Shown here piece by piece: positions 2,259 to 38,027 of a DNA stretch of 38,027 bases. The notes beneath the pieces are model-generated. The model worked only from the letters and a program-made list of their open reading frames with translations. It ran no database searches and was not told the origin of the DNA. This DNA is from Deltaproteobacteria bacterium (lineage in GTDB: Bacteria > Desulfobacterota > SM23-61). The stretch lies in the NCBI GenBank assembly GCA_016234425.1, contig JACRCA010000114.1, forward strand, positions 1 to 38,027. The letters are read 5' to 3'. Each line of letters starts with the position of its first letter. Within the stretch, counting starts at the first letter, position 1. A program made the translations under genes and the position numbers.

Positions 2259-5200
2259 TTGCGCGAAAAAGCACAGGAGGTAGGGAACATCCCTCTCAGT
2301 CCGATCCTTGTTGAAGGGGCCCGGCAGAACAATCTCAAGTGTGTCTCCGTCCATGTCCCGGTCGGCGCGGTAACCGTTGTAACGGGCGTGGCTGGCGCCG
2401 GCAAGTCCTCCCTCGCCTTCGACGTCCTCTACGCTGAGGGATACCGTCGATATGTCGAGACCTTCTCCCCCTATGCCCGCCAGTTTCTCGAGCGACTGGA
2501 TCGTCCCGACGCCGATCGAATCGAGGATGTGCTGCCAGCGGTGGCGATCGGACGGACTGCACCTATCCGCACTTCCCGCTCGACCGTCGGAACGATGACC
2601 TCCATCGATGATTACCTCCGTCCACTTTACGCGCGGGCATCCGTGCTTCACTGTGAAGGCTGCGGCCAGCCCGTCCAGCGCCATTCCCCTTCCTCGATCT
2701 TCCAGGCCCTCTCGTTATCGGCGACAGGGAAGAAAGTGCTCATCTGTTTCACTCGCCAGGTTGGTCGAGTGAGTGCCGCCGCCCTCCGAGAAATCTGCCG
2801 GCAAGCCGGGTTTTCCCGCGTGCTGGAAGAGGGAGAAGGGGTCCCGCTCGAGGAGGCTAAGCTGCCTTCTGAGGGTGGTGCGATTACAGTGGTCCTCGAC
2901 CGGATCCCCATCGATCCAGATCGCCGCCGTCGGATCATCGACTCCCTGGAATCGGCCCTCCGCTTCGGTGGGGGTCGCATGGAGGTGTGGATCGAAGGTG
3001 AAGAAGAGCCAATGCGCTTCAGTGAGAAGCTCCAATGTGCTCAGTGCAACATTAACTATGTCGATCCCACACCGGCCCTCTTCTCCTTTAACAATCCCCT
3101 CGGCGCCTGTGAGACCTGCAATGGGTTCGGCCGGATCATCGATATTGACCCTGATCTGGTGGTTCCTGACCCCGACGTCAGCATCGCCGAGGGTTGCATA
3201 AAACCCTTCCAGACTCCCGCCTACAGCGGATGTCAGGACGATCTGTTGGGCTTTCTACGCCGGCGAAGGATCCCGGCTGACACGCCTTGGCGCGAACTCG
3301 ATGAGGCAGTTCGACGGGTGATCTGGGAAGGCGAGCCAGATGGACCTTGGTATGGGGTTAGTGGACTCTTCGACTGGTTGAAGGGGCGCCGCTATCGCAA
3401 GCAGGCCCGTATTTTTCTGGCCCGTTACCGACGCTATCTCACTTGCCCCGATTGTGGGGGTGGCAGAATTAAGGCCGCAGCGCTTCTCTTTCGCCTGGGA
3501 GGCAAGACCTTACCCGAGGCGGAGAGGATGGCGATCTCCGAGGCCGAGCCGTTCTTTCGCCATTGGTCGGCGCCCATGGGGGATCGGGCGACAGAACTCC
3601 TTCTGAGCGAAATTCGCGGGCGACTTCGGTTTCTCCTGGATGTGGGGCTGGGCTACCTATCTCTGGCACGCATGTCGCGAACCCTTTCAGGGGGTGAGAC
3701 CCAGCGGGTTACGCTCGCCACTGCCCTGGGAGCGTCCCTGACCAGCACGCTCTATGTACTTGACGAGCCCTCCGTCGGTCTCCATCCACGCGACAAAGAG
3801 CAATTGGCCAGGGTGCTGCGGAAACTGGCGGCAGCCGGAAATGCCATAGTGGTCGTGGAGCACGACCCCATCTTCATCCGCGCGGCGGATCGAGTGATCG
3901 ACCTCGGCCCAGGCCCCGGGCGGGATGGAGGCAAGGTGGTCCACCAAGGCACTGTCGCCGGGCTATTGCGCCGGGGAGATTCTCAGACCGCAGCCTATCT
4001 AAGGGGAGAACTACGCATCGCCAGGCCTCCTGAAGACCATGAACGCAGTCCGCACGAGTTGTGGGTCATCGGTGCCCGGGAAAACAACTTGAAGGATCTG
4101 ACTGTCAGCATTCCGTTGGGCCTAGTGGTATGTGTAACCGGAGTGAGCGGATCGGGCAAGTCGACGCTAATCGACCAAGTTCTTTACCGGAATATCCGCC
4201 GCCAGATGGGGCTCCAGGCGATGGAGCCCGGAGCCTGCAGGACCATCGAGGGCGTAGAGCACCTGTCGGACGCCGTCCTCATCGATCAATCTCCCTTAAG
4301 CCGCAGCTCCCGCATGAGTGCAGCCACCTACATGCAGGTTCTTGACCCATTGCGCACGGCCTTCGCGAGCACCCGACAAGCCCGGGCTTTGGGTCTCGGC
4401 CGTTCCGCGTTTTCCTTCAATTCCTCCGCCGGTGCCTGCCCTCACTGCAAGGGTTCCGGATACGAAAGAGTGGAGTTGCAGTTCCTGCCAGATGTGTACA
4501 TCCGGTGCCCTGGCTGTGATGGCCAGCGCTTCCGTCCCGACGTGTTGGAGGTTCGAATCCGGGGCTACAACATCGCCGAGGTGTTGTCCCTTCCCGCTGG
4601 GGAGGTGGCCAGACTGTTCAGCGACGACGAGGACATCGTGGGGGCCCTCCGGCCGCTTCTGGACATCGGGCTGGGGTATCTGTCCCTCTCCCAATCCGCC
4701 CCCACCCTCTCCGGGGGAGAAGCCCAGCGACTCAAGCTCGCCAGGCACCTAGCTGAGGCGCGCAAGGTACAGAACCTCCTCTTCATTTTAGACGAGCCGA
4801 CCACCGGGCTCCATCCAGCCAACATCTCCGAATTGGTAAGCGCGCTCCACCATCTGGTGCGGGCAGGCCATTCAGTGGTAATGGTCGAACATGATATGGA
4901 CGTTGCCCGGGCTGCCGATTGGATCATCGATCTCGGCCCGGAAGGCGGAGAACAGGGAGGGCGGGTCGTGGGCCAAGGCCTACCCGATGAGATCGCCAAA
5001 CTTGACACGCCCACCGGCTATGCGCTACGGAAAGCGGTCATCTGGTCGCTACGGGACGATCAGACGGCCCGTACTCGCTCGATCCGTCCAGGGCGTCCTT
5101 CTCCCCGAAATCGGGACATCCGCATCGTGGGAGCGCGAGAGCATAATCTGGACAACCTGCGGGTGAAGCTTCCGCGTAACCGCTTCATTGCGGTCACGGG

Positions 5201-10167: not shown

Positions 10168-11094
10168 ATGCGCAGAGCGGAGAGTGCCCTGGATTTGATC
10201 GGCTCAACCCCGGTTGTACGGCTCAGGCGGCTTCCCGAGAGGGGGGATGCCACGATCTGGGCCAAATTGGAATCCTTCAATCCGGGGGGTTCTGTAAAGG
10301 ATCGCATCTGTTTGAGTATGATTGAAGCAGGGGAGAAAGAAGGAAAAATTCGCCAAGGGACCACCATCGTTGAGCCCACCAGTGGAAACACGGGAATCGG
10401 CCTGGCCATGGTTTGCGCGGTCAAAGGATATCGGTTGATCCTGACAATGCCGGAAACGATGAGCCTGGAACGCCGGGCCCTTTTGGCGGCCTATGGGGCT
10501 CAATTGGAGATAACGCCGGGAAATGAGGGAATGAGAGGGGCCATCCGGCGGGCCGAAGAGATTGTGGCGAAGAATGCCAATTTTTTCATGCCCCAGCAAT
10601 TCACCAACCCAGCGAATCCCCAGATTCATCGAGAGACCACAGCTAGAGAGATCCTCTCTCAGATCAAAGAGAGGATCGATGCATTTGTGGGTGGAGTGGG
10701 GACGGGAGGCACGATTACAGGGGTGGGTGAGATCCTGAAGAAAAAGATGAAAGGAGTAAAAATTGTAGCTGTGGAGCCAGCTCACTCCCCAGTGCTCTCC
10801 GGAGGAAACCCCGGGCCTCATAAAATTCAGGGGATCGGCGCGGGGTTCATCCCCCAGGTTCTGAACGCCTCGATCATCGACCAAATCATCACGGTCCAGG
10901 ATGAAGAGGCTGCCGCAACCGCCCGAAGGTTGGCTAAAGAAGAAGGACTCTTGGTGGGCATTTCTTCTGGGGCAGCTGCTTTCGGGGCCCTCCGGGTGGC
11001 CAAAGAATTGGGGAAAGGAAAGACGGTGATCGTCGTTTTGCCTGATACTGGCGAGAGGTATCTAAGCACAGGAATGTTTGGAATTACGGGGTAA
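10168..11094 (+). CDS. cysK: Cysteine synthase A (O-acetylserine sulfhydrylase, PLP-dependent)
   Basis: [12 protein letters not shown]-lysine motif, [21 protein letters not shown] and GISSGAA, 308 aa. Confidence 0.9.
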
Positions 11095-17762: not shown

Positions 17763-17888
17763 CCCCCTTTTTCCCAAGCTCGGCTGGCAGACTATGAGAA
17801 GAGGAAAGATGCCTAAATGAAACTCTCGAAAAATGAAAGGAAAATTGGAAAGACCCGAAAAAAGGTGGAAAGGAGAGGAAGGCAAATC

Positions 17889-19043
17889 ATGAGGCAAATG
17901 CGATCTTTCGTGGCCCTCTTTTGTTTAATATCTGCGACCTTTGGGTATCTAATAGCTACAAGCTCGGCCCAAGAAGGGGTTGCATCCGGGCGTTTACTCA
18001 CAGAGCAGGAAGTTGCCACAGAAAAATTCTTCTCCAGCTTGGAAGCTGCCCTGGCTAAAAAGTTTTTTGACCACCGCAAGCGGCCTGTTATTCGAGTGGC
18101 CATCTTCGATTTTACAGATGAGGCAGGCAATGTGGTAAAGTCCGGTAGAGAATTGGCCGATAAGATCACCAGGCGTCTGTATGGTAAGCCTCAATTTGAG
18201 GTGGTTGGCCAGGGGAAAATTAACCGTTATTTGAGTTGGAGTGGGCTCAGCGCTTTAGGGAAGCTGGATGCCGAAAGCCTGTATCGCTTACAACGCCGGA
18301 TCAATACGATGGACCCTAACAACGGAATCCATGTCCTGGTCAGAGGGGAAGTGAAGAAAGGAGTGGGTCGAAGCCTTCGCGTTTCAGCCTCATTGGTCGA
18401 TTTTCGATTCAGAATCGGGGCCATTGAGTTGGAAAAAAACATATTTGATCACCTGGCGTTGACAACAGAAATCCCCCTGCCAACGGAACAAGCGTTGCAA
18501 GAGGCTAGCGAAATTCTAATAGCGGGAGAGAAACGCCTGCAAGAGGAAGGTCGACTCCTGATCTTGGTCAACACTCGGGGAAACCCCCTTTTGGAGACCG
18601 AATATGGCCGCCATTTTAGCAAGGATCAAGCCTTTCCTTGGGCGAAGATTCCTCATGTCCTTACCCTCGGGAAGGCCGAAGTAATCATCCCCGAACAGCT
18701 CAGAATTGGACTGGAAAAGCTTCTTCTCTCACCCTTGGGGAGCGGGAGGAACTCTAAAGGATTGGAATACTCCTTTTTGCATGGCAAATGTGCCACTAAC
18801 GAGGTCTATTTCGATGAAATGATTCCCGCGCAAAGCTACCGCTTGACTACCAGCTTCCTTGACCTAAAAACCAACGAAACTTATTCTCAATCCTCGGAGG
18901 TCCAGGTTGATGCTGGGGTTACGACCCTCGTAGTCTTGTCCATTTATGTCCCCAGCGAAAAGGAGCGAATCCGGAACAAGGAGACTCCGCGAATTGATGT
19001 CTTTCAGCTTTTCGGCAAAGGGATGGAGATTTTGCCGAAGTAA
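17889..19043 (+). CDS. Secreted protein of unknown function; N-terminal domain resembles the LpoB/TolB-N-type scaffold (VAIFDF motif)
   Basis: Signal peptide MRQMRSFVALFCLISATFGYLIATSSA|QEG after GGAGAGGAAGG (17870-17880), spaced 8 nt from the ATG. RVAIFDFTDEAGNVVKSGRELADKITRRL...VLVRGEV...LRVSASLVD follows the pattern of periplasmic scaffold domains. The rest is not recognisable. An alternative start at ATG 17817 would add a 24-aa basic N-region. Confidence 0.65.
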   Translation: MRQMRSFVALFCLISATFGYLIATSSAQEGVASGRLLTEQEVATEKFFSSLEAALAKKFFDHRKRPVIRVAIFDFTDEAGNVVKSGRELADKITRRLYGKPQFEVVGQGKINRYLSWSGLSALGKLDAESLYRLQRRINTMDPNNGIHVLVRGEVKKGVGRSLRVSASLVDFRFRIGAIELEKNIFDHLALTTEIPLPTEQALQEASEILIAGEKRLQEEGRLLILVNTRGNPLLETEYGRHFSKDQAFPWAKIPHVLTLGKAEVIIPEQLRIGLEKLLLSPLGSGRNSKGLEYSFLHGKCATNEVYFDEMIPAQSYRLTTSFLDLKTNETYSQSSEVQVDAGVTTLVVLSIYVPSEKERIRNKETPRIDVFQLFGKGMEILPK

Positions 19044-21904: not shown

Positions 21905-24385
21905 ATGGAGGTATTTTTTAAAAAATCTTATCTGCGCCTTTTTTGGGGGGTGTTGATCATTCTGTTTTTTGCCTCCCCTTCTTTCCCTCAGGCTCCGCCA
22001 GAAAAAGCTACGCCTTTTTCTATCTTAAAGATTGAGATGACGGAGACCAGTAAGGGTTCACGGGTGACGATCGAGGGCTCAAGGGCGTTTGATTATGCGG
22101 CATATAAAATGGCCAACCCCCTTCGGGTGGTGGTGGAATTACCCCAAGCCCAACTGGGAAAATTGGTTGGGCCGATCGAGGTGCAAAACGGGATAGTCAA
22201 TGTAATTCGTAACATCCAAGTTGAAGACCCAACAAAACCCGGAGCTCGTGTCGAGATTGCCCTTGAGCAGAATGTGGAGTACTCCCTTGAATCTGAAAAA
22301 AATCTGCTGTATGTGGACTTGGTCCGACCCAGCGCTGCTGTCGAGGTAAAAGAAGAAAAAAGGGAAGCTTTAGTGGAGAAGCCCCTAAAACCAGCGAAGG
22401 TGTTAAAAGAGTTAGACATCTTGGCCAAGACGGATTGGGTGAAGGTGGATCTCAGGGGGGATGGCACGATGCCGGACCATAAGAGCTTCCAATTAACTAA
22501 ACCTTCTCGTCTGGTCGTGGATCTTCCCCGGTTGAGTAATGCTTCTTCAAAGAGGAACATTGACGTAGGGAGCAAATTGTTAAAAGATATTCGCATCGGT
22601 CAGCACCCAGATAAATTGCGCTTAGTTTTTACTTTCCCGGAAACGAGAATCCCTCCTTTCCAGTTGGCTAAAGAGGGCGAGAGCCTCACCCTCCTATTGG
22701 CCAGGACCCAAGAGGAGATGCCTGCCAGAGAAACCCCTCCAGTTGCCCCACCTGCAAAGCCAGTTGAGATTGTGGAAGCGATCCCCAAAGCTGAAGCGGT
22801 GCCGAAAGCCGAAGTAGTGGCCAAAGCTGAACCAGCCCCCAAAGCCGAGGTAGAACCCAAAGTCGAAGCTGTACCCAAAGCCGAAGTTGTGCCGAAAGCC
22901 GAGGAAGAACCCAAACCAGAGGTAGCCCCTAAGGCCGAAGCTAAGCCAGAAGCCGCCGTTCCTGCGCCGGAGGAAAAGCCCGAGATTCCCGAAAAAAAGA
23001 TTCCAGCCGAGGTCAAACCGGTACCAGCAGAGGTGGTTAAGCCGGTAGTGACTCCATACAAAGGGGCAAAGATTTCGCTGGATTTCAAAGATGCAGACAT
23101 CCACAATATTTTTCGCCTGATTGCGGAAGTGAGTAACTTGAATATCATTACCACCGAAGACGTAAAGGGGAAGATCACCATTCGACTGGTGAATGTTCCC
23201 TGGGATCAGGCTTTGGACGTTATCCTATCGACGAAAAATTTGATAAAAATCGAAGAAGGGAATGTTCTCCGTATCACGACCATCGAGACTGTGAAGAAGG
23301 AGAGGGAGGACAAGCAGAAAGAAGAAGAGAGTTTACTCAAAACTCGCGAGACTAAATTGAAGCTGGAAGAACCCGAAAGAAAGATTTTAAAAGTAAATTA
23401 TGCCGATGCCACTGAATTGCAAAAGCTCCTCTTAGAACAGAAAGAATTGGGGAAAGGCTTTCTTAGCCCTCAGGGTTCGGTGAAGGCCGATAAGCGCACA
23501 AACACTTTAATCATTCAGGATATTCGCAATAGATTAGAAGCAATTGAGCAACTGATCAAAGATTTGGATAGTCCCACACCCCAGGTGCTCATCGAAGCCC
23601 GGGTCGTTCAGGCCCAGACGACCTTCGGACGCTCGTTAGGTAGCCCATGGGGTGGAAGCTCCAACCAGATCGGGGGGGGACAATGGTTTTGGGGGCTTAC
23701 GGGAAATAACCCGAGTGCTTCAGCTGGATGGGGATTTACGCCCAGTGCCACTGGAGCCAGCACTCCCTTAATCATGCCCTCCAATTTCGTGGTAAATTTC
23801 CCGGCTACCACTGCTAATACTCCGGTGGGAGGATTTGGAATTTCCTTTGGCAAACTGACCGGCAGTTTGGTGAACCTGGATTTGAGACTCCAACTGGGAG
23901 AGACTGATGGCCAGACAAAAGTGATCGCCCGGCCCAAACTGGCCACCTTAGATAACAAAGAAGCGCACATCAAACAGGGAGAAAAAATCCCCTACGAAAC
24001 CACTTCCCAGGCCGGAACTCAAGTGCAGTTCATCGATGCCGTTCTTTCTCTGAAGGTGACCCCTCATGTGACCCCGGATGGAAGTATATTGATGAAAGTG
24101 ATGGTGACCCGAGATGCTCGAGGAGCTTTCCGCAGCCCTATCAATCAGGTTCCCAGCATAGACAACCGCGAAGCCTCTACCGAGGTTCTGGTGAAAGACG
24201 GAGAAACCCTTGTAATTGGCGGAATTTATGAAACGGAAAAGAGCACGACCGAACATGGAATTCCCTGGTTGATGAAAATTCCCATCTTAGGATGGCTGTT
24301 TAAAAACCAGGAAGTATTTGAGAGTAAGAAGGAACTCCTCATTTTCATCACCCCCACCATCATCCAAACCAAAGTGGAGTCCTAG
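21905..24385 (+). CDS. pilQ: Type IV pilus secretin PilQ with two AMIN domains and a repetitive PKAE linker
   Basis: 826 aa with a signal peptide. Two AMIN-like modules (RVTIEG...[14 protein letters not shown] and VKVDLRGDG...[12 protein letters not shown]). N0/N1 region ([19 protein letters not shown]). Secretin core ([10 protein letters not shown]...[16 protein letters not shown]...ELLIFITP). Confidence 0.9.
22784..22945 (+). repeat. About nine in-frame 18-nt tandem repeats encoding (P/A)K(A/V/P)Exx inside pilQ
   Basis: [54 protein letters not shown]. The units start at 22784, 22802, 22820 and so on. Confidence 0.85.
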
Positions 24386-24403
24386 AAAATTCCGTCGCCG
24401 CAG

Positions 24404-24431
24404 AAGGGCACCCCGAGGGTGCCCTTTTTTT
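24404..24431 (+). terminator. Rho-independent terminator after pilQ
   Basis: AAGGGCACC-CCGAG-GGTGCCCTT forms a 9-bp GC-rich stem followed by a T-run (TTTTTTT), 19 nt after the pilQ stop. Confidence 0.8.
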
Positions 24432-24537
24432 ATCTGGCTGGCAGCCAAAAGCTACTTCCCCAGGAAGGGTTTTCTTTAACCTTGCAGATGAAATAGGGTT
24501 GTGGTATTTTTTCAATTGGATGGTTTGGGAGGAAAGA

Positions 24538-27123
24538 ATGAACCGGCGATATGATCCTCAGAGCGTGGAAAAAAAGTGGCAGCAGATATGGGAAGAACGC
24601 CGGCTCTTCCAATCCGCGGAGGATCCCCAGCGAAAAAAGTATTATGTTTTAGAAATGTTTCCCTATCCTTCGGGGAAAATCCACATGGGGCACGTGCGGA
24701 ATTATTCCATCGGCGATGTAGTGGCTCGATACAAGCGGATGCGCGGATTCAACGTGATCCATCCCATGGGTTGGGATGCTTTCGGGATGCCGGCGGAGAA
24801 TGCCGCGATCCAACATGGCGTTCATCCAGCAAAATGGACTGAGGATAACATCGCCGCCATGAAAAAACAACTTCGGCGGATGGGTTTTAGCTATGACTGG
24901 AGGCGAGAACTGTCTACCTGTGATCCGTCATACTATCGCTGGGAACAATGGCTGTTCCTGAAGATGTACGAGAAAGGACTGGCTTACAAGAAAAGCTCTT
25001 CGGTCAACTGGTGCGAAAGCTGCCAGACCGTGCTGGCCAACGAACAAGTGGAGGCCGGGAGATGTTGGCGCTGCAGCGAAGAGGTGATCCAAAAAGAGAT
25101 GGAAGGATGGTTCTTCAAGATCACGGCCTACACAGAAGAATTACTAGATTATTGTGACAAACTCCCTGGCTGGCCCGAGCGGGTAATTACCATGCAGAAG
25201 AATTGGATTGGTAAATCCGAGGGAGCAATCATTCACTTTCCTCTGGGGGAAAGAGAGGGCTTTATCCCGGTTTTTACCACCCGGCAGGATACGATCTTCG
25301 GGGCAACTTTCATGATCTTGGCCCCGGAACATCCCCTGACCTTGGAGCTTTCGGGAAGAACACCCCAGGAGAGGGAAGTGAGAGAGTTTGTGGAGCGAAT
25401 CAAAAAACAAGACCGGGCTAAGCGTACGGCAGAGGATTATGAAAAAGAAGGACTTTTTATCGGGGCCTTCTGCCAAAATCCTCTCACCGGCAAGGAAATC
25501 CCCATCTTTGTAGGGAACTTTGTCTTGATGGATTACGGCACGGGAGCAGTGATGGCTGTCCCTTCCCATGATCAGAGGGATTTCTATTTTGCTAAGAAAT
25601 TTAACCTTCCCTTAGTGGTGGTCATTCAGCCGGAGGGAGAGCCTTCCTTAAGCACGGAGAGGATGACCGAAGCTTATACGGGAGAAGGTATTTTAGTCAA
25701 TTCCGGTCCTTTCAACGCAATGCCCAGCTGTCAGGCCCGACAAGCCATTGCCAGCTATTTGGAAGAAAAAGGCCTTGGCCAAGGAGCTGTGACTTATCGC
25801 TTGCGGGATTGGGGAATTTCGCGGCAGCGGTACTGGGGAACCCCCATCCCGATCATTTACTGCCAGGAATGTGGAACAATGCCGGTACCAGAAAAAGATC
25901 TGCCAGTAGTACTTCCTCAAGATGTCCAGCTCACCGGTCTGGGAATATCCCCCCTATCTAACGTTCCCGAATTCGTGAACACTTCCTGCCCCCGATGCAG
26001 AAAGCCGGGCAAACGGGAGACGGATACCATGGATACTTTCGTGGAGTCCTCCTGGTACTTTGAGCGCTTCTGCAGCCCGCAAGAGAATCGGGGAATGTTT
26101 GACCGGCAGAAAGTTCATTACTGGATGCCTGTGGATCAGTACATCGGCGGGATCGAACATGCTATCCTCCATTTGCTCTACTCTCGGTTTTACACCAGAG
26201 TCCTCCGGGATTTCGGGCTGGTGAATTTTTCTGAACCTTTTACCAACCTTCTAACGCAAGGGATGGTCGTTAAGGAAACACATTTCTGCTCCCGGGACGG
26301 CTTTCTCTTCCCGGAAGAGGTAGAGGATGAGAAGACTTGCAGAAAATGCGGGCATCCGGTCCAGGTGGGGCGCACAGAGAAGATGAGCAAATCGAAAAAA
26401 AATGTAGTGGAACCCGATTCCTTGATGGATAAATATGGGGCAGACACCGTGCGCCTTTTCTGCCTTTTTGCCTCACCGCCAGAAAAAGACCTGGAGTGGA
26501 ATGAACAGGGAGTAGAAGGATCTTTTCGCTTTTTGAATCGGGTCTGGCGCCTGATGGAGGAATGGGCGGGAATATCAGGGAGGGCGGAATTGCCCCGGAA
26601 GGAGTGGAATCTTCCCGAAGCCCTTCGCCATCTGCGGCGAAAGACGCATCTGACCATCAAAAAGGTTACGGAAGATATCGAAAACCGCTTCCATTTTAAC
26701 ACGGCCATCAGCGCCATTATGGAACTGGTGAACCTCCTTTACCAAGACGAAGGAAGATTGGAGGATAAGACCCCCTTTACTTTAGGGGTCTGGCGAGAAG
26801 CGCTGGAATCGATCGTCATCCTCCTTTCGCCCATTGTCCCCCACATCTGCGAGGAACTCTGGGAAATACTGGGCCAGGCCGAGAGCGTTTCCCGAGTTTC
26901 CTGGCCTGAGTATGAACCTGAAGCCCTAAAGGACGAAGAGGTTCTGATTGTCATTCAGGTGAACGGGAAACTCCGCGGTCGAGTCATGGTGGGGGTTCAT
27001 GCCTCCGAAGAAGAGGTGAAAGAGGCGGTCCTGGCCAACCAGCGAGTTCAAGAATTTTTAAAAGACCAGCCTGTCAAGAAGTTCGTCCTGGTCCCGAAAA
27101 AATTGGTCAATTTAGTCGTATGA
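24538..27123 (+). CDS. leuS: Leucyl-tRNA synthetase
   Basis: ATG 24538 after [24 protein letters not shown] (HIGH motif), KMSKSKKN (KMSKS motif) and CP1/editing region motifs. 861 aa. Confidence 0.95.
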
Positions 27124-27210
27124 GCTGCGTTGAAAGGTGATAATATTCGAACGAATTTTCCTCCCAGGTCTTTTTGGCCATATCTTTGAATACCCTTTAA
27201 GGAGGTATCC

Positions 27211-29967
27211 ATGGGCGGATGGAAATGGGCGCGTTGCGGAGCAGTGGCCATTGCTCTGGCCATCGGGATTGCCGGATGCGTTTACACACAACGCACAAAG
27301 ATTGCGCCTCCCGTTGTAGCTGCCTTTAAGGGGGAGTCGCGGGTGGATCCATACCTCCTTGATCACCAGCCCCAGACAGTGGCTGTCTTGCCCTTCTCGA
27401 ACAGGACCGATAAGCAAGAAGCCTTCGACATAGTTCGTAAATCCTTCCAGGGACATTTCAGCAGATTGAATTATACCACCATGCCTTTATTCAAAGTGGA
27501 TGACTCTCTCAATAAAGCCGGCTTAGATACTCCGGAAAAAGTTGCCCAGGCTTCGCCGCAAAGACTTCGAGAAATTCTAAAAGCTGATGCGGTCATCCGG
27601 GGAGATATCACCCATTACGAGCGAGTTTTTGTGGGGGTTTACTCCCAAGTAGCCGTAGGGGCTGAAGTTCGGATGGTCGAAGGAAAATCAGGGAAAGAAC
27701 TCTGGTGGGCCAAAGATGTTTCTCGTAAACATGCCGGAGGGATATCCACAACGCCAGTCGGGTTGATCTTAACCGCCGTCGCCACTGCCCTGAATATAAG
27801 GGAGATTGAGCTACTCCGTTCCTCAGATGATCTCTTCCGAGATATGGTCAAAACCATCCCTCAACCCACGCTGGCCCAAGCCCTGAGGCCCCCGAACATT
27901 ACCATATTAGTGCACGATGGAATGAGGCGTTCGGATAAATACGCCAATAAAGTAGGGGATGTCATTAAGGTAGCCATGGAGGGAGACCCAAGGATGAGGG
28001 CTTTCTTCGGGATCGGGGATTTCAAAAAGGACGTTCCTCTTAAGGAAGGAGAGCCAGGCGTCTACGTGGGAAGTTATAAGGTTATGCCCAGAGACAATGC
28101 CGAGGATGCGCTCATCACAGGAACGCTCATGAATGATGCCGGCAGTTCTACAGATTGGGTAGATGTACTGGGTCCAGTAACCATCGACACCACGCCGCCG
28201 GAAATGCCCGGGGGATTAAGAGCCCTTGGAAGGGACAGAATGGTGGATTTGAGCTGGTCGAAGAGCGTAGACAAAGACATCGCCAAGTATAAAATTTATA
28301 GGAGCGGTACCCCTCTGACCGGATACCAGGAAGTGGCGACAACTGAATTAACCGCTTTCCATGATAAGAACCTGAAGAATGAAATGAGTTATTATTACAA
28401 AGTTTCCGCCGTAGACTTGGCCGGCAACGAAAGTAAACTTTCGGACCTAACCAAAGCAACGACTGTGACGCCTGGCCCAACTCCTGTTCAGGGGATGATC
28501 TTAGGAGAAACAACCTGGTACGCCGGAGCGAGTCCTTACATTATAGAAGGGCAGGTCTTGGTGGGCCAAAAGGCTACCCTGTTCATCGAACCGGGAACCA
28601 TCATTCGCTCCAAGGGCGAAGGGATTTCTGTCCTCGGGAAATTGATCGCCAAGGGTGATCAAAACAGCCTGATCACCCTGGAAGCGGCAGCGCCGGAGAA
28701 GCCTTGGAAGGGGATTGTTTTTGATGGAACGAAAAATGAAGAAAGCGCCATCGAATATGCCAAAATCAGGGGGGCGGTTGCCGGGATTACCTGCCTTTCG
28801 TCTTCGCCAGTAGTTGCCCACAACGATATTTCCAATAACCAAGTGGGCATTCGGATCAGTGAATCTTTCTCCCAGCCCAAAATTTTGGGGAACACCATTT
28901 CTTCCAATGCGATGGCTGGAGTTGAAGTCTCGGCGGCGGCGACTCCTCATCTGGAAGAAAACGAGATCCGCGGCAACCAAAAGGATGGAGTCTCCAGCCG
29001 GGAAGCCAGGCCGTTGTTGATGAAAAATCGAATCGCGAATAACGGGGAAGTCGGAGTCCGGCTTTTTTCATCAGCGGCTCGTCTGCTCCACAACAACATT
29101 CATGACAACGGGAAATATGAGGTTTACAACGCTCTGGAGAGGGATGTGCATGTGGAGGCCAAAGACAACTGGTGGGGGACAAAGGAGGGTCTGAAGGTTA
29201 TCGGAAAAATTTTTGGTAGAGTGGAATACCAGCGGGTGCTGGACGCTCCCTATCCCCAGGGCAGGCCACTGGACCTTTCTATCCTGAAAAGTCCGCTGAC
29301 TGGCCCAATTGACCGAGACTCTTTCCTGACCTTAGTCAACAGCCCCTACGTAGTGGAGAAGGATGTGATTGTAGAGAAGGGGGCCACTCTTTTCATCGAG
29401 CCCGGGGTAACTCTAAGGTACAACCCGGGAGCTTCGATGGTTGTAAAAGATGGGGGCGTTGATGCCAGGGGGACAGGTGACCAGGTGATAACTTTTACAT
29501 CTAACAGTTCCTCGCCCTCGCCAGGGAGTTACCCTTCTGGGGTAAAGTTTGAACAGCCTTCGAAGCTGGCCAGTTTCTTCCGCTATTGCATTTTCGAATA
29601 CGCTGAGACGGGCTTAGACATTTCTTATGGTGCCCCCGAAATCGATCATTGCTTGATTGCCCATCATTCTCAAGTTGGAGTTAAGGTAGCCAGGGAGGCT
29701 GAGCCCAGAATTTTTTTCAGCACCTTCGCCAAGATTTTGGGGACTGGGGCAGTGGTGGCTCTGGGGGCCTCCAGGCCTAAAATTAACCGAAATAATTTCC
29801 TGGATAACCCATTTGCCATTCAAAGTTTCTCTTCGATTTATTTAGACGCCAGGGAGAACTGGTGGGGGTCGAGTCCACCAAAAGAATCGCTATTTTTGGG
29901 GGAGATCAATTATAAACCTTGGCTAGATGGTCCAGCAGTGGGGGCCTTTCAAGGGAGGAAGCCGTGA
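27211..29967 (+). CDS. 918-aa lipoprotein: DUF799/GNA1162-like N-domain, beta-sandwich, FN3, then two right-handed beta-helix (PbH1/CASH-like) modules
   Basis: Lipobox AIGIAGC after AAGGAGG. TVAVLPFSNRTDKQEAFDIVRKSF...ADAVIRGDITHYERVFVGVYSQVAVGAEVRMVEGKSGKELWWAK is DUF799-like. The FN3-like part is MVDLSWSKSVDKDIAKYKIYRSG...SYYYKVSAVDLAGNES. Two modules carry repeated xNxIxxNxxxGI turns (HNDISNNQVGIRIS, GNTISSNAMAGVEVS, ENEIRGNQKDGV, KNRIANNGEVGVRL, HNNIHDNGKYEV). Each module ends in (D/E)NWWG, at about 29164 and about 29854. Confidence 0.8.
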   Translation: MGGWKWARCGAVAIALAIGIAGCVYTQRTKIAPPVVAAFKGESRVDPYLLDHQPQTVAVLPFSNRTDKQEAFDIVRKSFQGHFSRLNYTTMPLFKVDDSLNKAGLDTPEKVAQASPQRLREILKADAVIRGDITHYERVFVGVYSQVAVGAEVRMVEGKSGKELWWAKDVSRKHAGGISTTPVGLILTAVATALNIREIELLRSSDDLFRDMVKTIPQPTLAQALRPPNITILVHDGMRRSDKYANKVGDVIKVAMEGDPRMRAFFGIGDFKKDVPLKEGEPGVYVGSYKVMPRDNAEDALITGTLMNDAGSSTDWVDVLGPVTIDTTPPEMPGGLRALGRDRMVDLSWSKSVDKDIAKYKIYRSGTPLTGYQEVATTELTAFHDKNLKNEMSYYYKVSAVDLAGNESKLSDLTKATTVTPGPTPVQGMILGETTWYAGASPYIIEGQVLVGQKATLFIEPGTIIRSKGEGISVLGKLIAKGDQNSLITLEAAAPEKPWKGIVFDGTKNEESAIEYAKIRGAVAGITCLSSSPVVAHNDISNNQVGIRISESFSQPKILGNTISSNAMAGVEVSAAATPHLEENEIRGNQKDGVSSREARPLLMKNRIANNGEVGVRLFSSAARLLHNNIHDNGKYEVYNALERDVHVEAKDNWWGTKEGLKVIGKIFGRVEYQRVLDAPYPQGRPLDLSILKSPLTGPIDRDSFLTLVNSPYVVEKDVIVEKGATLFIEPGVTLRYNPGASMVVKDGGVDARGTGDQVITFTSNSSSPSPGSYPSGVKFEQPSKLASFFRYCIFEYAETGLDISYGAPEIDHCLIAHHSQVGVKVAREAEPRIFFSTFAKILGTGAVVALGASRPKINRNNFLDNPFAIQSFSSIYLDARENWWGSSPPKESLFLGEINYKPWLDGPAVGAFQGRKP

Positions 29968-30914
29968 AGCGCGCTTTGACTGGTATTATATTTTTATGGG
30001 TAGTTGCCTGGACGGCGATGATTTGGGCAGGGCAGGGGGAGGTAATCGAGCTTATCGGTAATGGGGAAATCAACTGGTCTCAGGGGATCATCCTTGCCAA
30101 GGGGAGTGGAGCTCCCCCCAAAGAGGCCAAAAATATTGCTCAGGCGCGTTTGCTGGCTGAGCGGGCAGCCTTATCCGATGCCCGGCGCAACCTTCTGGAG
30201 GTGCTCAAAGGAGTGCGCATTGATTCGATGACCAGCGTCGAAAGTCATATGCTCAAAAGCGACCAGATCCGGCTGAGTGCCGAAGGGTTCATCCAGGGCT
30301 CCGCGGAGATGAAGGATCAGAGGAGATACCTTTCTGATGGGGCCATCGAGGTAACCGTGGCCATGAACCTAACCGGAGATTTTTTAGTTTTGATGCTCAG
30401 CCTACCCAAAGAATTGAAAATCACCAAACCCTTTGTAATGGAAAGACCTTCTCCCCAACTACCCCCTGCTCTCCCAGAGAAAAAATTGGAACCGCTTTTG
30501 GAAAGACCAAAAGTCGGGGAGCCAGAAAAGCCGTTGTTGGAAACAAAACCCTCGCCGCCTCTTGCAGATCTTCCGAAATTTACTGGATTGGTAGTCGATG
30601 CCCGCGGTCTCAACATGCGGGCGGCATTGATCCCCAAGATTCTGAATGAGGGCGGTCAGGAGTTGTACCGGGGGCCATATGTTCCCTATGAGAAAGCAGC
30701 CCAAAATGGCCTGGCTCTTTATAGTAAAGATCTGACCGCAGCCCAAACAAACCCCCGAGTGGGGAAAAATCCCTTGACCGTCAAAGGGTTCAAGGTGAAA
30801 CCTGAGAGCCCTTCAGACATCATCTTGAGCGCTGAGGAGTCCAAAAAGGTTGCTCCGTTTACGCAGAAGGGGACCTTCTTGGAAGATTGCCGGGTCATGA
30901 TCGTTTTGGATTGA
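29964..30914 (+). CDS. Exported LPP20-like domain protein with Pro-rich linker and uncharacterised C-terminal domain
   Basis: GTG 29964 (GTGA overlap with the upstream stop) gives a signal-like VKRALTGIIFLWVVAWTAMIWA|GQ. AKNIAQARLLAERAALSDARRNLLEVLKGVRIDSMTSVE...GFIQGS...YLSDGAIEVTVAM has the LPP20-type pattern. Linker: PSPQLPPALPEKKLEPLLERPKVGEPEKPLLETKPSPP. The C-terminal domain begins FTGLVVDARGLNMRAALIPKILNEGGQELY. Confidence 0.6.
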   Translation: MKRALTGIIFLWVVAWTAMIWAGQGEVIELIGNGEINWSQGIILAKGSGAPPKEAKNIAQARLLAERAALSDARRNLLEVLKGVRIDSMTSVESHMLKSDQIRLSAEGFIQGSAEMKDQRRYLSDGAIEVTVAMNLTGDFLVLMLSLPKELKITKPFVMERPSPQLPPALPEKKLEPLLERPKVGEPEKPLLETKPSPPLADLPKFTGLVVDARGLNMRAALIPKILNEGGQELYRGPYVPYEKAAQNGLALYSKDLTAAQTNPRVGKNPLTVKGFKVKPESPSDIILSAEESKKVAPFTQKGTFLEDCRVMIVLD

Positions 30915-30921
30915 GGGGCTT

Positions 30922-31437
30922 TTGCAAAGAGTTTCCGTCTTCATCCTTTTAGCTGTTCTTTCTTCTTCTGCGGGTTGTGGGTACCATTTTGCCGACAGCA
31001 GAAGCGGGCTTCCATCCGGCGGCCGGTCGATTGCCATTTCGGGCTTCGCCAACCAAACGATGCAAACCGGTATTGAGAGCGAACTGACCCGTGCCTTGGT
31101 GGAGAAGTTTATTTCCGCCGGACGATTAATCGTGACGAAGCAAATTTCGGCAGAGGCCTTACTGACGGGGAGTGTCAGATCCTTTGTTATTTCTCCTGTT
31201 ACCGTGACTAGCGGGACTCAGGTGGCCACGGAATACCGGGCCACTCTGACCATCGAAGCGACCCTGCAGCGACAAAGAGATGGGAAAGTCCTCTGGAAAG
31301 GAGAGGTCAGCGAGTGGAGGAATTACCGAGTAGTCTCTGACTTGACTACCACCGAAGCCAACAAGAGGGAGGCCATCCGCCAGATATCTGAGCGTTTAGC
31401 CGAGAGGCTGCATGTGATGGTTTGGGAAGATTTTTAA
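30922..31437 (+). CDS. lptE: LPS-assembly lipoprotein LptE
   Basis: TTG start 4-5 nt after GAGGGG. Lipobox LSSSAGCGYHF. About 170 aa. Conserved position between leuS and holA. Confidence 0.7.
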   Translation: MQRVSVFILLAVLSSSAGCGYHFADSRSGLPSGGRSIAISGFANQTMQTGIESELTRALVEKFISAGRLIVTKQISAEALLTGSVRSFVISPVTVTSGTQVATEYRATLTIEATLQRQRDGKVLWKGEVSEWRNYRVVSDLTTTEANKREAIRQISERLAERLHVMVWEDF

Positions 31438-31475
31438 CGCTGGAGATGCCGAACCAATCTCCCGATTCCTTAGGA

Positions 31476-32525
31476 ATGAAAGCGCAAGAATTTTTCCGAG
31501 ATGTTGAAAGAGGAGATTTACGCCCTTTCTATTACCTCTACGGGCCAGAAAGAGGGCTGATCGAGGAAGCCTTGAATAAAATCAAGGAGAAGGCCCTTAA
31601 CCCGGCAACTCGGGAATTCAATTTCGAGATATTGGACGCCAAAGAGCATACCGAGGAAACCATTCTGGCAAGCTTTCAGATTTTTCCCGTTCACTCTCCT
31701 CGGCGCTTGGTGGTGATTCAGCAGGCAGATCTCATATGGAATAAGGACGCCTCCTCCTATATCGACTATTTCTTAAGTCCGAACCCCCTGACCTGCACCG
31801 TCTTCCTTGGCGAGAAAGCCGACCTGCGGACCAAATTTTTCCAGGCCCTGGGAAAAAAGGGTGCGGCCATCCCCTTCTATCCTCTCTCGGAAGGGGAACT
31901 GATCCATTGGATTCATTCGCAAATAAAGAAGTTGGATCATCAGATATCCGAGGAAGCAGTTGCCCTGCTAATGGAGCGGGTTGGCCCAAACCTGCAAGAA
32001 CTTAAGCTTGAACTCCAGAAATTAGCCTTAAGAAAAAGGGGAAGAGGCCAAATTGCCGAAGAGGATGTGCTTAACTTGACCGAAGATATCCGGAGTGAAA
32101 ATCCCTTCGAACTTCCCCCGGCAGTGGCCCGTTTAGATCTTAAGGGGATGCTTCGCCTTCTGCGGAAAAATTTGCAGCAAGGAGAACCTCCCCTTCTCCT
32201 TTTCTTGCTGATCGTCCGTCAGCTCCGCCTGATCAGGAGGGCGCAAGATCTCAAATCAGGAGGGTGCTCAAAGAAAGAAATAGAGACAAGGCTTAGGATT
32301 TTTCCGCGGAAGGCAGAAGATTTTTGGGAACAGGTCGAGAACTTTCCCCTTTCCTCTCTGGACCAACTTTGGCTCCTTACCTTGGAAGCGGATCAAAAAC
32401 TCAAAGCCAGCTACTTGGAAAAAGGGCTTCTGCTGGAAAAATACCTCTGGGACCTGTACTTCCACGGTTGGGGGGGATGGACAGCCGGCAGGGCAATGAA
32501 TCATCCCCCAGGGCATAAGGGTTGA
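31476..32525 (+). CDS. holA: DNA polymerase III delta subunit
   Basis: LRPFYYLYGPERGLIEEAL N-terminal pattern, about 350 aa, downstream of lptE. Alternative starts at 31422 and 31446 are in frame. Confidence 0.8.
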   Translation: MKAQEFFRDVERGDLRPFYYLYGPERGLIEEALNKIKEKALNPATREFNFEILDAKEHTEETILASFQIFPVHSPRRLVVIQQADLIWNKDASSYIDYFLSPNPLTCTVFLGEKADLRTKFFQALGKKGAAIPFYPLSEGELIHWIHSQIKKLDHQISEEAVALLMERVGPNLQELKLELQKLALRKRGRGQIAEEDVLNLTEDIRSENPFELPPAVARLDLKGMLRLLRKNLQQGEPPLLLFLLIVRQLRLIRRAQDLKSGGCSKKEIETRLRIFPRKAEDFWEQVENFPLSSLDQLWLLTLEADQKLKASYLEKGLLLEKYLWDLYFHGWGGWTAGRAMNHPPGHKG

Positions 32526-35542: not shown

Positions 35543-35558
35543 GAGACTTAGATAGCCC

Positions 35559-35745
35559 ATCCCCTGCGATGTTGGTGATGATGCCATATTCTTTGATCCA
35601 ACAGCAAGAGAACGGGAGCTGTCCCTTATTGCGGCTGGCCTGTCCCAAATCGGCAACGAACTGGGAACGCCAAAAGTAATAATATGGCCCCCACCTAGAA
35701 AAACTAGGTTCAAAAAGAAAGCATCACACGGCATTTGCGGGGGAT
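35559..35745 (+). ncRNA. ssrS: 6S RNA candidate (ends approximate)
   Basis: About 187 nt, immediately downstream of zapA as in the E. coli zapA-ssrS arrangement. The hand fold gives a long imperfect closing helix: ATCCCC 35559-64 with GGGGAT 35740-45, GGTGATGATGC 35575-84 with GCATCACAC 35721-29, and TTCTTT 35589-94 with AAAGAA 35714-19. An unpaired central region spans about 35600-35625 and about 35684-35706. The apical helix pairs TTATT 35626-30 with AATAA 35678-82 and TCCC 35643-46 with GGGA 35663-66. The G-U pairs favour the + strand. Confidence 0.55.
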
Positions 35746-36084
35746 ACAGAAAGTAGGGTTATCGGTTTTATCCTGTGATTTTTAGGATCCTTTGAGGATA
35801 TTGTAAGAGCAGAGGGAGAATTTAAACAGAAAGTAAAGGAAGAAAAAAGCTTAAGTTTCATGGATAGATTTAAAAAACTTGGCCAAAATGATACTTCCCC
35901 GAAAAAGGGGAGAGGAAAGAAAATGTTGGTAAGTTTTGGCGCAAAGGAAAACCACACCGAAAGATTTAGAAAAACTGCTTAAGCCTGAATTTCCTCCTTT
36001 CCTTTTCTCCCGCAAAATTTATTAAACCAAAAAGGAGATTTTTCAGGGTTTATTCGGCGACCAATTTGCCGGATCATTCCCTGC

Positions 36085-37665
36085 ATGAAAGAGAATATGC
36101 CAGTGAATATCTATATGATGATGGGAGCGGGTCTGGTTCTCCTTCTGGTCGGTATCTTGCTAGGCATGCTCCTGCACAGAAAGATGACCGCGCTTCGGTC
36201 TCGATTGGCCGAGCAGAAGGCCCGAGAGGCGGTCGAAGAAGCCAAGAGAGAAGCCGAATCCATTAAGAAAGAAGGTGAGATCCAGGCTAAAGATCATTTC
36301 TTCCGGGCCAGGACGGAATTTGAAGCTGAAGCCAAAGAACGCCGCCAAGAACTGCTGAATATGGAGAGGCGATTGCTGCAGAAAGAAGAAAATTTGGAGA
36401 AGAGGGTTGATCTTTTGGATCAAAAGGAGTCTGGTCTATCTAAGCGGGAGAAGGCGTTGCTTCAGCAAGAGAAAATCGTCGGCGAGAAAGAGAAGAAATA
36501 TGCCGTGATGGTTGAAGAGCAGCGGCAGAATCTGGAACGCATTGCGGGAGTTTCCGCAGAAGAGGCCAAGGAACGTTTGATGAAGCTCGTGGAGAGTGAA
36601 ATGCGACATGAATCTGCCAAGCTTATAAAAAAGATTGAAGAAGAGACGCAGAGCCAAGCAGACAAACGAGCCAAAGAGATTATCGTCTCGGCCATTCAAC
36701 GTTATGCGGCAGATTACGTGGCCGAGGAAACTGTTTCGGTAGTCAACCTACCCAATGAGGAGATGAAAGGTAGGATCATCGGTAGGGAGGGGCGGAATAT
36801 TCGAGCTTTAGAGGCAGCAACGGGAGTGGATTTGATCATCGATGATACCCCGGAAGCTGTGATCATCTCAGGCTTTAACCCCATCCGCCGGGAGATCGCT
36901 CGCATTACACTTGAACGATTGATCACGGATGGCCGCATCCATCCCGGGCGGATTGAAGAAATCGCAACGAAAGTTGAACAAGAGATGGAGCAGACCATCC
37001 GGGAGAGTGGAGAACGGGCGACTTTTGATGTAGGGGTCCACGGGATTCACCCAGAATTAATCAAGATGGTGGGGAAACTAATATTCCGTACCAGTTTTGC
37101 GCAAAATGTTTTCCAGCATTCTTTAGAGGTGGCCTTCCTCGCTGGGGCCATGGCTGCGGAACTTGGAATAAACATCAAGCAGGCCAAACGGGCTGGGCTT
37201 CTCCATGACATTGGTAAGGCTGTGGACCATGAAGTGGAAGGAGCGCATGCTTTGATTGGAGCTGATCTAGCTCGAAAATACGGGGAGGCTCAAAGAATCA
37301 TCCACGCCATTGCCGCTCATCACGATGATGAAAAACCCCAGACTACTCTGGCCATCTTGATCCAGGCAGCCGATGCTTTATCTGCGGCTCGCCCGGGTGC
37401 TCGACGGGAGATGCTGGAGACTTATGTCAAGCGGTTAGAGGAATTGGAAAGAATTTCATATTCATTTCCTGGAGTTAGCAAAGCTTATGCGATTCAAGCA
37501 GGTAGGGAAGTCCGAGTGATCGTAGAAAATGAGGAGATCTCCGATGCTGATGCTATAATGCTAAGCAGGGATATTGCTCGCAAAATCGAAAACGAATTGA
37601 GTTACCCGGGGCAGATTAAAGTAACGGTAATCAGAGAAACCAGAGCCGTGGAATATGCTAAGTAG
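36085..37665 (+). CDS. rny: Ribonuclease Y
   Basis: N-terminal TM segment, a long charged coiled coil, a KH domain ([28 protein letters not shown]) and an HD domain ([17 protein letters not shown]...LLHDIGKA). The C-terminus ends [20 protein letters not shown]. Confidence 0.9.
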
Positions 37666-37931: not shown

Positions 37932-38027
37932 TAATTGGAGAGTTTGATCCTGGCTCAGAACGAACGCTAGCGGCGTGCCTAACACATGCAAGTCGTACGA
38001 GAAATCCTGAGCAATCGGGAGAGTAAA
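37932..38027 (+). rRNA. rrs: 16S rRNA, 5' end only (continues beyond the window)
   Basis: AATTGGAGAGTTTGATCCTGGCTCAGAACGAACGCTAGCGGCGTGCCTAACACATGCAAGTCG matches the universal 5' 16S region, including the 8-27F primer site. Confidence 0.95.

Follow-up and report, generated by a model that had tools for sequence, protein, structure and literature searches.

The stretch of DNA considered here, called the window throughout, is the 38,027 nucleotides (nt) of contig JACRCA010000114.1 (positions 1 to 38,027, forward strand) from a Deltaproteobacteria bacterium of the GTDB lineage Desulfobacterota; SM23-61 (assembly GCA_016234425.1). Within it, the leuS-lptE-holA gene array is interrupted by two open reading frames (ORFs), ORF1 and ORF2, which lie between leuS and lptE. 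The statements made below on the identity and evolution of this pair are well supported. The overall reading is held with even confidence: it takes the two genes as a translationally coupled envelope pair that acts as an outer-membrane-proximal scaffold, forms an old portable unit and is co-transcribed with lptE by reason of its position. The features of the locus are:

24402 to 24428, + strand: strong intrinsic terminator 3′ of pilQ, a stem of 12 base pairs, 7 of them GC, ahead of a T-run
24499 to 27123, + strand: leuS, leucyl-tRNA synthetase (Pfam tRNA-synt_1_2, E=5.6e-70; Anticodon_1)
27199 to 27205, + strand: Shine–Dalgarno sequence AAGGAGG of ORF1, within the 87-nt leuS-ORF1 spacer (read from the sequence)
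27211 to 29967, + strand: ORF1, 918 amino acids (aa) (Pfam domains, AlphaFold2 (AF2) model, homologues)
29964 to 30914, + strand: ORF2, 316 aa, GTG start (sequence; the N-termini of homologues align at the same start)
30922 to 31437, + strand: lptE, lipopolysaccharide (LPS)-assembly lipoprotein, TTG start (PF04390, E=4e-16)
31422 to 32525, + strand: holA, DNA polymerase III delta (TIGR01128, E=5.5e-71)

An earlier reading of the stretch from its letters (the sequence-only reading) had given the same coordinates, spacings and start signals, and all of these hold. The AAGGAGG lies 5 nt from the ORF1 ATG at 27211. The start of ORF2 and the stop of ORF1 overlap in a GTGA at 29964-29967, with GGGAGGA just 5′ of it, and 7 nt separate the ORF2 stop at 30914 from the TTG of lptE. 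This TTG is also the start used in the 100% identical NCBI protein HY882_04435 of a groundwater metagenome-assembled genome (MAG). lptE and holA overlap at 31422-31437, and the true start of leuS is probably the ATG at about 24538. leuS and lptE are thus not directly adjacent in the window but stand 3.8 kb apart, with a two-gene module of 3.7 kb between them. In E. coli K-12 the three genes are contiguous (b0642-b0640), as the sequence-only reading had stated. The window array shares with this canonical operon the gene order and orientation, the lptE-holA overlap and the lack of an intergenic terminator; it differs in the 3.7-kb module, which is carried by the clade of the window.

The terminator that trails pilQ is the sole strong + strand terminator nearby and delimits the leuS transcription unit on its upstream side. 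The sequence-only reading had seen no terminator from 27123 to 32525, and a scan of this interval agreed, returning only three weak matches inside genes (31162, 31601 and 32179). The count of terminator-like matches, 29 against 20.9 +/- 5.4 in shuffles, is within expectation. Promoter-like counts equal the shuffle expectation, so that no internal promoter can be claimed, and an Rfam scan found no RNA elements in the 24-33 kb region of the window. A single transcript from leuS to holA is supported because the spacing is operon-like throughout. The 4-nt overlap of ORF1 and ORF2 is retained in related loci of both clades that carry the arrangement (L001-L004 and L009-L011). From leuS to ORF1 there are only 8-12 nt in L009-L011, against 56-88 nt in most of the subclade of the window. 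Between ORF2 and lptE there are 7-60 nt in that subclade and 62-237 nt in L008-L011; a terminator scan of the ORF2-lptE gaps of carrier loci, L008-L011 included, found none. Judged from these signals, the module is very probably co-transcribed with leuS-lptE-holA, as had been proposed. The 237-nt ORF2-lptE spacer of L010, in the sister clade, holds an inverted repeat at 10672-10712, CCCTGTTTAAAT...ATTTAACAGGG; it is not followed by a T-run and was not counted as a terminator.

ORF1 and ORF2 are both real genes, because they have at least 464 full-length homologues and 1282 homologues, respectively. Homologues of ORF1 are named in databases as “GNA1162 family protein” or “DUF799 family lipoprotein”, and those of ORF2 as “hypothetical protein”. 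The AF2 model of ORF1 has a mean predicted local distance difference test score (pLDDT) of 85 and five folded domains. Together with the signal peptide, its parts are:

27211 to 27279, + strand: signal peptide with lipobox IAGC (residues 20-23) and Cys23 (conservation)
27334 to 27855, + strand: GNA1162/DUF799-like alpha/beta domain, residues 42-215 (PF05643, 4hrv, Foldseek)
27898 to 28470, + strand: Ig-like beta-sandwich (residues 230-320), then fn3 (323-420) (AF2, PDB, Foldseek)
28480 to 29250, + strand: right-handed beta-helix 1, residues 424-680 (Beta_helix, NosD, AlgG 4nk8)
29296 to 29910, + strand: right-handed beta-helix 2, residues 696-900 (duplicate of beta-helix 1; pLDDT above 90)

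At least 90% of 34 homologues retain the lipobox cysteine, Cys23, and the motif G-C-[VIL]-[YS]-T occurs in all clade members. ORF1 is accordingly predicted from its lipobox to be an outer-membrane lipoprotein. The domain that follows matches PF05643 with 58.9 bits (gathering cut-off 25.9; E=6.2e-16; profile positions 9-148 of 185), and a precomputed PF05643 match is present on every full-length ORF1 homologue among the matches listed. The same domain finds PDB 4HRV, N. meningitidis GNA1162, in a profile search (E=3.1e-16) and in Foldseek (4hrv_B, E=6.4e-8, template modelling (TM) score 0.79), and has the TolB-N-like alpha/beta fold of that structure. It is the most constrained part of ORF1, with 13 conserved D/E/H/K/R/Y residues and an LLRxxDDLFR motif across the 34 homologues. 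The fn3 domain is weak in Pfam (E=0.007) and is supported by a PDB profile search and the AF2 model; Foldseek matches the Ig-fn3 region to titin and to fn3 tandems. The beta-helices match Beta_helix PF13229 (83.9 bits, E=1.2e-23) and NosD PF05048 (56.4 bits, E=3.7e-15), both above threshold. The two helices are internal duplicates, recognized by BLASTP at 24% identity (E=1.3e-15). An NCBIfam scan of ORF1 gave only repeat matches or partial matches far below cut-off. The domain models that the sequence-only reading expected on ORF1 (DUF799, fn3, Beta_helix/NosD) were therefore all recovered, fn3 by the route just described.

Canonical GNA1162 is a single-domain protein of about 200 aa, whereas ORF1 has 918 aa and adds the Ig-like, fn3 and two beta-helix domains; the lipobox and alpha/beta domain are common to both, and envelope or matrix roles are suspected for both. 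The canonical GNA1162 gene is clustered with CsgG/HfaB and DUF4810 partners, while the partner in the window is a secreted protein resembling FlgP and Tp0624. The parts of this partner, ORF2, downstream of its signal peptide are:

30036 to 30398, + strand: N-terminal FlgP/LPP20-superfamily (SHS2-like) domain, residues about 25-145 (9hmf_C profile, Foldseek 9hmf_A)
30399 to 30563, + strand: proline-rich linker of variable length, residues about 146-200 (homologue alignment; pLDDT about 30)
30564 to 30911, + strand: C-terminal Tp0624 D2-like domain, residues about 201-316, with an FTGLVIDARG motif (5jir_B profile, Foldseek)

The ORF2-type family is large: counted as clusters at 50% identity, it has 4,514 members with a limit of E<=1e-3 and 700 with a limit of E<=1e-30. 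An NCBIfam scan found no family for ORF2. ORF2 has a type-I signal peptide with the consensus cleavage site WA|xxGEV and no cysteine in the signal peptide. Because it lacks a lipobox cysteine, ORF2 is predicted to be a secreted protein and not a lipoprotein, and the description of the two genes as a “lipoprotein pair” holds for ORF1 alone. It has been reported that some Helicobacter FlgP homologues naturally lack a lipobox (PMC11756786). The proposed LPP20 likeness stands in part. The Pfam LPP20 model (PF02169) reaches 13.8-13.9 bits on ORF2, below its gathering threshold of 25.9; 8 of 30 members of the ORF2 family match it at E<=0.1 (best 0.0042), none at the cut-off. Homology of the N-terminal domain to the FlgP/LPP20 superfamily is nevertheless supported by sequence comparison with C. 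jejuni FlgP from a flagellar motor model (9hmf_C, E=4.8e-7 for the single sequence and 2.4e-9 for the profile), and Foldseek matches it to 9hmf_A (E=0.019, TMt 0.58). The alignment with FlgP has no gaps in the stretch that links the SHS2 helix to the second strand, and this stretch is, in FlgP, the beta-hairpin insert from which the ring is built (PMC12222027).

The C-terminal domain matches Tp0624 D2 (5jir_B, profile E=2.3e-4), and the best structural match of the whole ORF2 model is Tp0624 itself (5jir_A, Foldseek E=1.5e-9, 314 columns). ORF2 thus carries D1-like and D2-like domains in one chain, which ends after the D2-like domain without the OmpA-like D3 of the treponemal form. In Tp0624 (5JIR), D1 and D2 are packed together, whereas in ORF2 they are split by a long disordered linker. 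The D1-D2 part of Tp0624 has been described as an inseparable unit of unknown function that occurs without D3 in other bacteria, and an envelope-stabilizing role has been proposed for the protein (PMC5104382).

SHS2 proteins of the FlgP/Lpp20/FlgT kind form outer-membrane-proximal disks or rings in the motors of Campylobacter, Helicobacter and Vibrio, and FlgP rings lie beneath the outer membrane (PMC12222027). In H. pylori, the flgP-fapH lipoprotein operon gives rise to a ring that preserves the barrier function of the outer membrane (PMC11756786). ORF2 is likewise paired in a probable operon with a predicted outer-membrane lipoprotein, ORF1. It differs from FlgP in having no flagellar genes nearby and in its added proline linker and D2-like domain. 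The sequence-only reading had DUF799- and LPP20-type lipoproteins sharing operons in Neisseria and Helicobacter; the literature consulted gives a different picture, with a GNA1162 homologue in a cluster of CsgG/HfaB and two lipoproteins, and lpp20 of Helicobacter in an operon of its own.

For the distribution of the pair, one genome per GTDB species was scanned. ORF1 relatives are encoded in 153 genomes, and the best 80 of these 153 were compared together with the window (81 species-level loci) by mapping the window genes onto the loci and clustering all ORFs. The best 80 are all MAGs of Thermodesulfobacteriota, Syntrophales or Desulfobacterales, bar two of Nitrospinota. ORF2 follows ORF1 in most of the loci that reach far enough. 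The context leuS-ORF1-ORF2-lptE-holA is confined to 12 of the 81, namely the window and L001-L011, which make up two sister clades; neither lptE nor holA lies near ORF1 in any of the other 69. The ORF1-ORF2 pair is a portable conserved unit.

The commonest other position of the pair is between truA/epimerase and mutL. In Syntrophales, the order is pgk, truA, epimerase, a four-gene block, ORF1, ORF2, mutL, miaA, a TPR/SLH lipoprotein gene and valS. The four-gene block encodes an FlgT_N protein, a TPR-CsgG lipoprotein, a CsgG-like protein with six fn3 domains and a 106-aa ORF. It is present between the epimerase gene and ORF1 in L013, L020, L024 and L081 and absent from L016, L021, L030 and L084, and it is the second case at this locus of envelope genes that some genomes have and others lack. 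In further contexts, a TPR-Amidase_3 gene and a TPR-SLH gene adjoin ORF1. At least one envelope-type neighbour (FlgT_N, CsgG, SLH or Amidase_3) is found in 54 of the 69 loci outside the two clades. A CsgG-like gene adjoins the pair only in Syntrophales loci, which gives these a likeness to the CsgG/HfaB clusters; the window itself lacks both CsgG and DUF4810 genes. The recurrent neighbours of the pair (SLH, Amidase_3, CsgG-like and FlgT_N) speak for envelope architecture and peptidoglycan and not for LPS transport. At the Nitrospinota locus L083 (120-9810), genes for a GT4 glycosyltransferase, mfd and two surA paralogues follow the ORF1 homologue, and ORF2 is missing.

The suggested survey of leuS-lptE intervals in relatives gave a mixed answer: the pair occupies the interval in the window and L001-L011, and is absent between the same flanks elsewhere. 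Three loci (L086-L088), found through a word-indexed LptE search that reached homologues at 49% identity or more only, have the flanks of the window (pilMNOPQ-leuS-lptE, then rpsT on the opposite strand and murJ) and no ORF1-ORF2. In L086 (8001-8987), L087 (8001-8976) and L088 (8001-8744), lptE is followed directly by a convergent rpsT, and the essential holA is likewise missing from its usual place after lptE. The LeuS proteins of L086-L088 are 76-77% identical to that of the window, the same as those of the pair-carrying L005-L007, while those of the pair-carrying L008-L011 are about 61% identical. In the LeuS tree, of which the well-supported groupings were used along with the identity matrix, L086-L088 fall among the pair carriers.

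It is most parsimonious that the pair entered the leuS/lptE junction before the two carrier clades split, that it was then inherited vertically, as the ORF1 identities track the LeuS identities, and that it was lost or relocated in the L086-L088 lineage. The description of the module as “inserted” is correct in that the array is interrupted, but the event is not recent, for it predates the split of the clades. A recent horizontal insertion was considered and rejected on the same identities and on the guanine-cytosine (GC) content, which is a uniform 0.50-0.52 across leuS, the pair and lptE. The placement between leuS and lptE is a well-supported old, lineage-specific rearrangement in two sister clades of uncultivated Thermodesulfobacteriota. 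The sequence-only reading took the combination at this locus to be undescribed; the literature search found no description of the protein architecture or of this leuS-lptE interruption, and no paper combining leuS, lptE and holA.

The mechanism proposed for the pair, the likeliest of those considered, is an outer-membrane-anchored periplasmic scaffold or glycan-binding complex, and it is put forward tentatively, as a somewhat doubtful account. The lipid of ORF1 would sit in the outer membrane, with the N-terminus and the GNA1162/TolB-N-like domain at its inner face, where this constrained domain may serve as a docking surface. The Ig-like and fn3 domains would form a stalk that holds out the two tandem beta-helices, apparently non-catalytic and of a carbohydrate-binding type. 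ORF1 would thus supply both a membrane anchor and a glycan-binding surface, directed at peptidoglycan or another envelope polysaccharide. ORF2, made in fixed ratio to ORF1 through translational coupling, would be exported by Sec and cleaved by signal peptidase I; it would use its FlgP-like domain to polymerize below the outer membrane, and would dock to ORF1. Its SHS2 domain appears to include the insert by which FlgP polymerizes into arcs and rings, and its proline linker and D2-like domain may reach across part of the periplasm. Precedents for such an assembly are the rings of FlgP and of flgP-fapH described above, and the CsgG/HfaB cluster of A. baumannii described below.

A number of points weigh against this scaffold. 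The interaction of ORF1 with ORF2, the oligomerization and the ligand are all inferred, and the sorting of ORF1 to the periplasmic face instead of the cell surface is an assumption. The ORF2 model has a mean pLDDT of 64.8, falling below 50 in the putative ring-forming insert (residues 87-109). Nitrospinota relatives encode ORF1 but no ORF2, and the second protein is thus not needed in every case. The few conserved charged residues of the beta-helices are still compatible with an unusual active site, and AlgG is the best enzyme match. Finally, the retention of the pair beside lptE across about 61% LeuS identity could reflect selection for co-expression with outer-membrane biogenesis.

It is improbable that ORF1 is instead an outer-membrane-tethered periplasmic modifier of polysaccharide, an AlgG-like epimerase or a lyase, that acts in exopolysaccharide export with ORF2 as its accessory. 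Right-handed parallel beta-helix repeats are common to ORF1, AlgG and NosD/CASH proteins. The solved enzyme nearest to beta-helix 1 by sequence is AlgG (4nk8, profile E=2.4e-7), and Foldseek matches the beta-helix model to GH28 and PL3 (pectate-lyase) helices. An A. baumannii cluster of CsgG/HfaB and two lipoproteins (D1G37_12595-12605), which includes a GNA1162 homologue, is required for the poly-N-acetylglucosamine (PNAG) matrix and biofilm, so that clusters of this type affect PNAG production. A sugar epimerase/dehydratase gene also lies upstream in many Syntrophales loci, but this gene is part of a pgk-truA-epimerase housekeeping block that occurs with or without the extra envelope genes, and a synthase, glycosyltransferase or export porin is not consistently adjacent. 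The catalytic motif of AlgG-type C5-epimerases is DPHD. This motif is absent from ORF1; the local AlgG alignment begins after the expected motif position, and the segment just before the aligned region reads GITCLSSSP. Across the 34 homologues, conserved D/E/H/K/R/Y residues number only four in each beta-helix, against 13 in the GNA1162-like domain, and the conserved charged residues of beta-helix 1 are E460, D632 and K685 only. ORF1 thus differs from AlgG in having no evident catalytic motif, two tandem helices, few conserved polar residues and a lipid anchor via the GNA1162 domain. The residue pattern appears to fit a docking domain with binding or structural helices better than an enzyme.

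It is quite improbable that the pair is a lineage-specific accessory of LptD/LptE, with beta-helices that handle LPS or O-antigen and with co-transcription that reflects a shared function. In its favour are the operon-like spacing of 7-60 nt to lptE in the subclade of the window, an arrangement kept in two sister clades whose LeuS proteins are about 61% identical, the carbohydrate-type beta-helices on a predicted outer-membrane lipoprotein, and the surA genes and GT4 glycosyltransferase near the Nitrospinota ORF1. The sequence-only reading had similarly tied the pair by position to LPS and outer-membrane biogenesis. This is not supported: the leuS/lptE context is a minority one among the 81 loci, with no lptE nearby in any of the other 69, and the close relatives L086-L088 retain leuS-lptE without the pair. 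The ORF2-lptE gap grows to 62-237 nt in L008-L011, and recurrent neighbours elsewhere are peptidoglycan-related or of the CsgG/FlgT type, not Lpt. Model organisms, moreover, co-transcribe leuS and lptE without the pair. In P. aeruginosa, lptE lies directly 3′ of leuS, and CRISPR interference (CRISPRi) on leuS has a polar effect that lowers lptE (PMC12977507). Read-through from leuS into lptE is the pre-existing state in model bacteria, and therefore genes lodged at this junction are co-transcribed by default. As this co-transcription is automatic, it is not evidence of a function shared with lptE. Co-transcription of the pair with lptE would be a consequence of position, not evidence for a role in LPS transport.

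It is very improbable that ORF1 is a surface-exposed lipoprotein, such as an adhesin or an S-layer-like beta-helix/fn3 protein, with ORF2 aiding its export or anchoring. The combination of fn3 and beta-helix is typical of surface proteins, a review lists GNA1162 among surface lipoproteins (PMC7857515), and PF05643 domains are found in hypervariable target proteins of diversity-generating retroelements (DGRs). Against this, no Slam-like or other surface-lipoprotein export component is adjacent to the pair, relatives of the GNA1162 and FlgP families whose location is known act on the periplasmic side, and the neighbouring genes carry peptidoglycan-facing SLH and Amidase_3 domains.

An accessory of a trans-envelope machine, either an FlgP/FlgT-like disk around a flagellar motor or a partner of the type IV pilus secretin encoded upstream, is highly improbable: ORF2 has its FlgP-homologous domain, FlgT_N proteins adjoin the pair in Syntrophales and pilMNOPQ lies upstream in the clade of the window, but no flagellar structural genes occur within 7-10 kb of the pair in 84 loci, most carriers have no pil genes near it, and the pilMNOPQ link was rejected, since a strong terminator separates pilQ from leuS and pilMNOPQ-leuS synteny persists in relatives without the pair.

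The proposed scaffold of ORF1 and ORF2 could belong to a larger assembly, although this is unlikely. Together with the Syntrophales FlgT_N, TPR-CsgG and CsgG-like/fn3 proteins, the pair would form the core of a ring or lattice, non-flagellar and close to the outer membrane, in which ORF2 polymerizes like FlgP, ORF1 tethers it and the beta-helices grip peptidoglycan or another glycan. If true, this would be a previously unrecognized bracing of the outer membrane in Thermodesulfobacteriota, co-expressed with LptE in the clade of the window, and would give the orphan GNA1162 and Tp0624 D1-D2 families their first functions.

Other features of the contig lie apart from the pair. A 1,780-aa UvrA-like ORF (2259-7601, +) has duplicated UvrA modules (ABC_tran, two UvrA_inter and UvrA_DNA-bind) and sits in an island with a GC content of 0.60-0.62, against about 0.50 elsewhere on the contig; this is a possible case of horizontal acquisition of a double-UvrA (class II-like) gene. 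Directly upstream of pilM, a 408-aa ORF (17817-19043, +) has no Pfam match. Within pilQ, an 18/36-nt tandem repeat (22784-22915, +) encodes a low-complexity linker of the PKAE(A/V)V type between the AMIN domains and the secretin core. Downstream, Rfam identifies a 6S RNA gene (35558-35747, +; 93 bits) upstream of the RNase Y gene (36085-37665) and, at the contig end, the first 96 nt of a 16S rRNA gene (37932-38027, +).

The leuS-lptE interval also provides a cautionary case, in that genes riding in the essential leuS-lptE-holA operon can be co-transcribed without a shared function; neighbourhoods should be compared across genomes before position is used to infer function. GNA1162/DUF799 lipoproteins and Tp0624-type D1-D2 proteins are widespread, with solved structures and unknown function. 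Here, with 81 species-level loci compared, both kinds of protein are joined in one translationally coupled unit. Rather than a new kind of system, the pair represents known orphan families in a new architecture, and the locus offers a concrete hypothesis for them, that of a lipoprotein anchor with an FlgP-like polymerizing partner.

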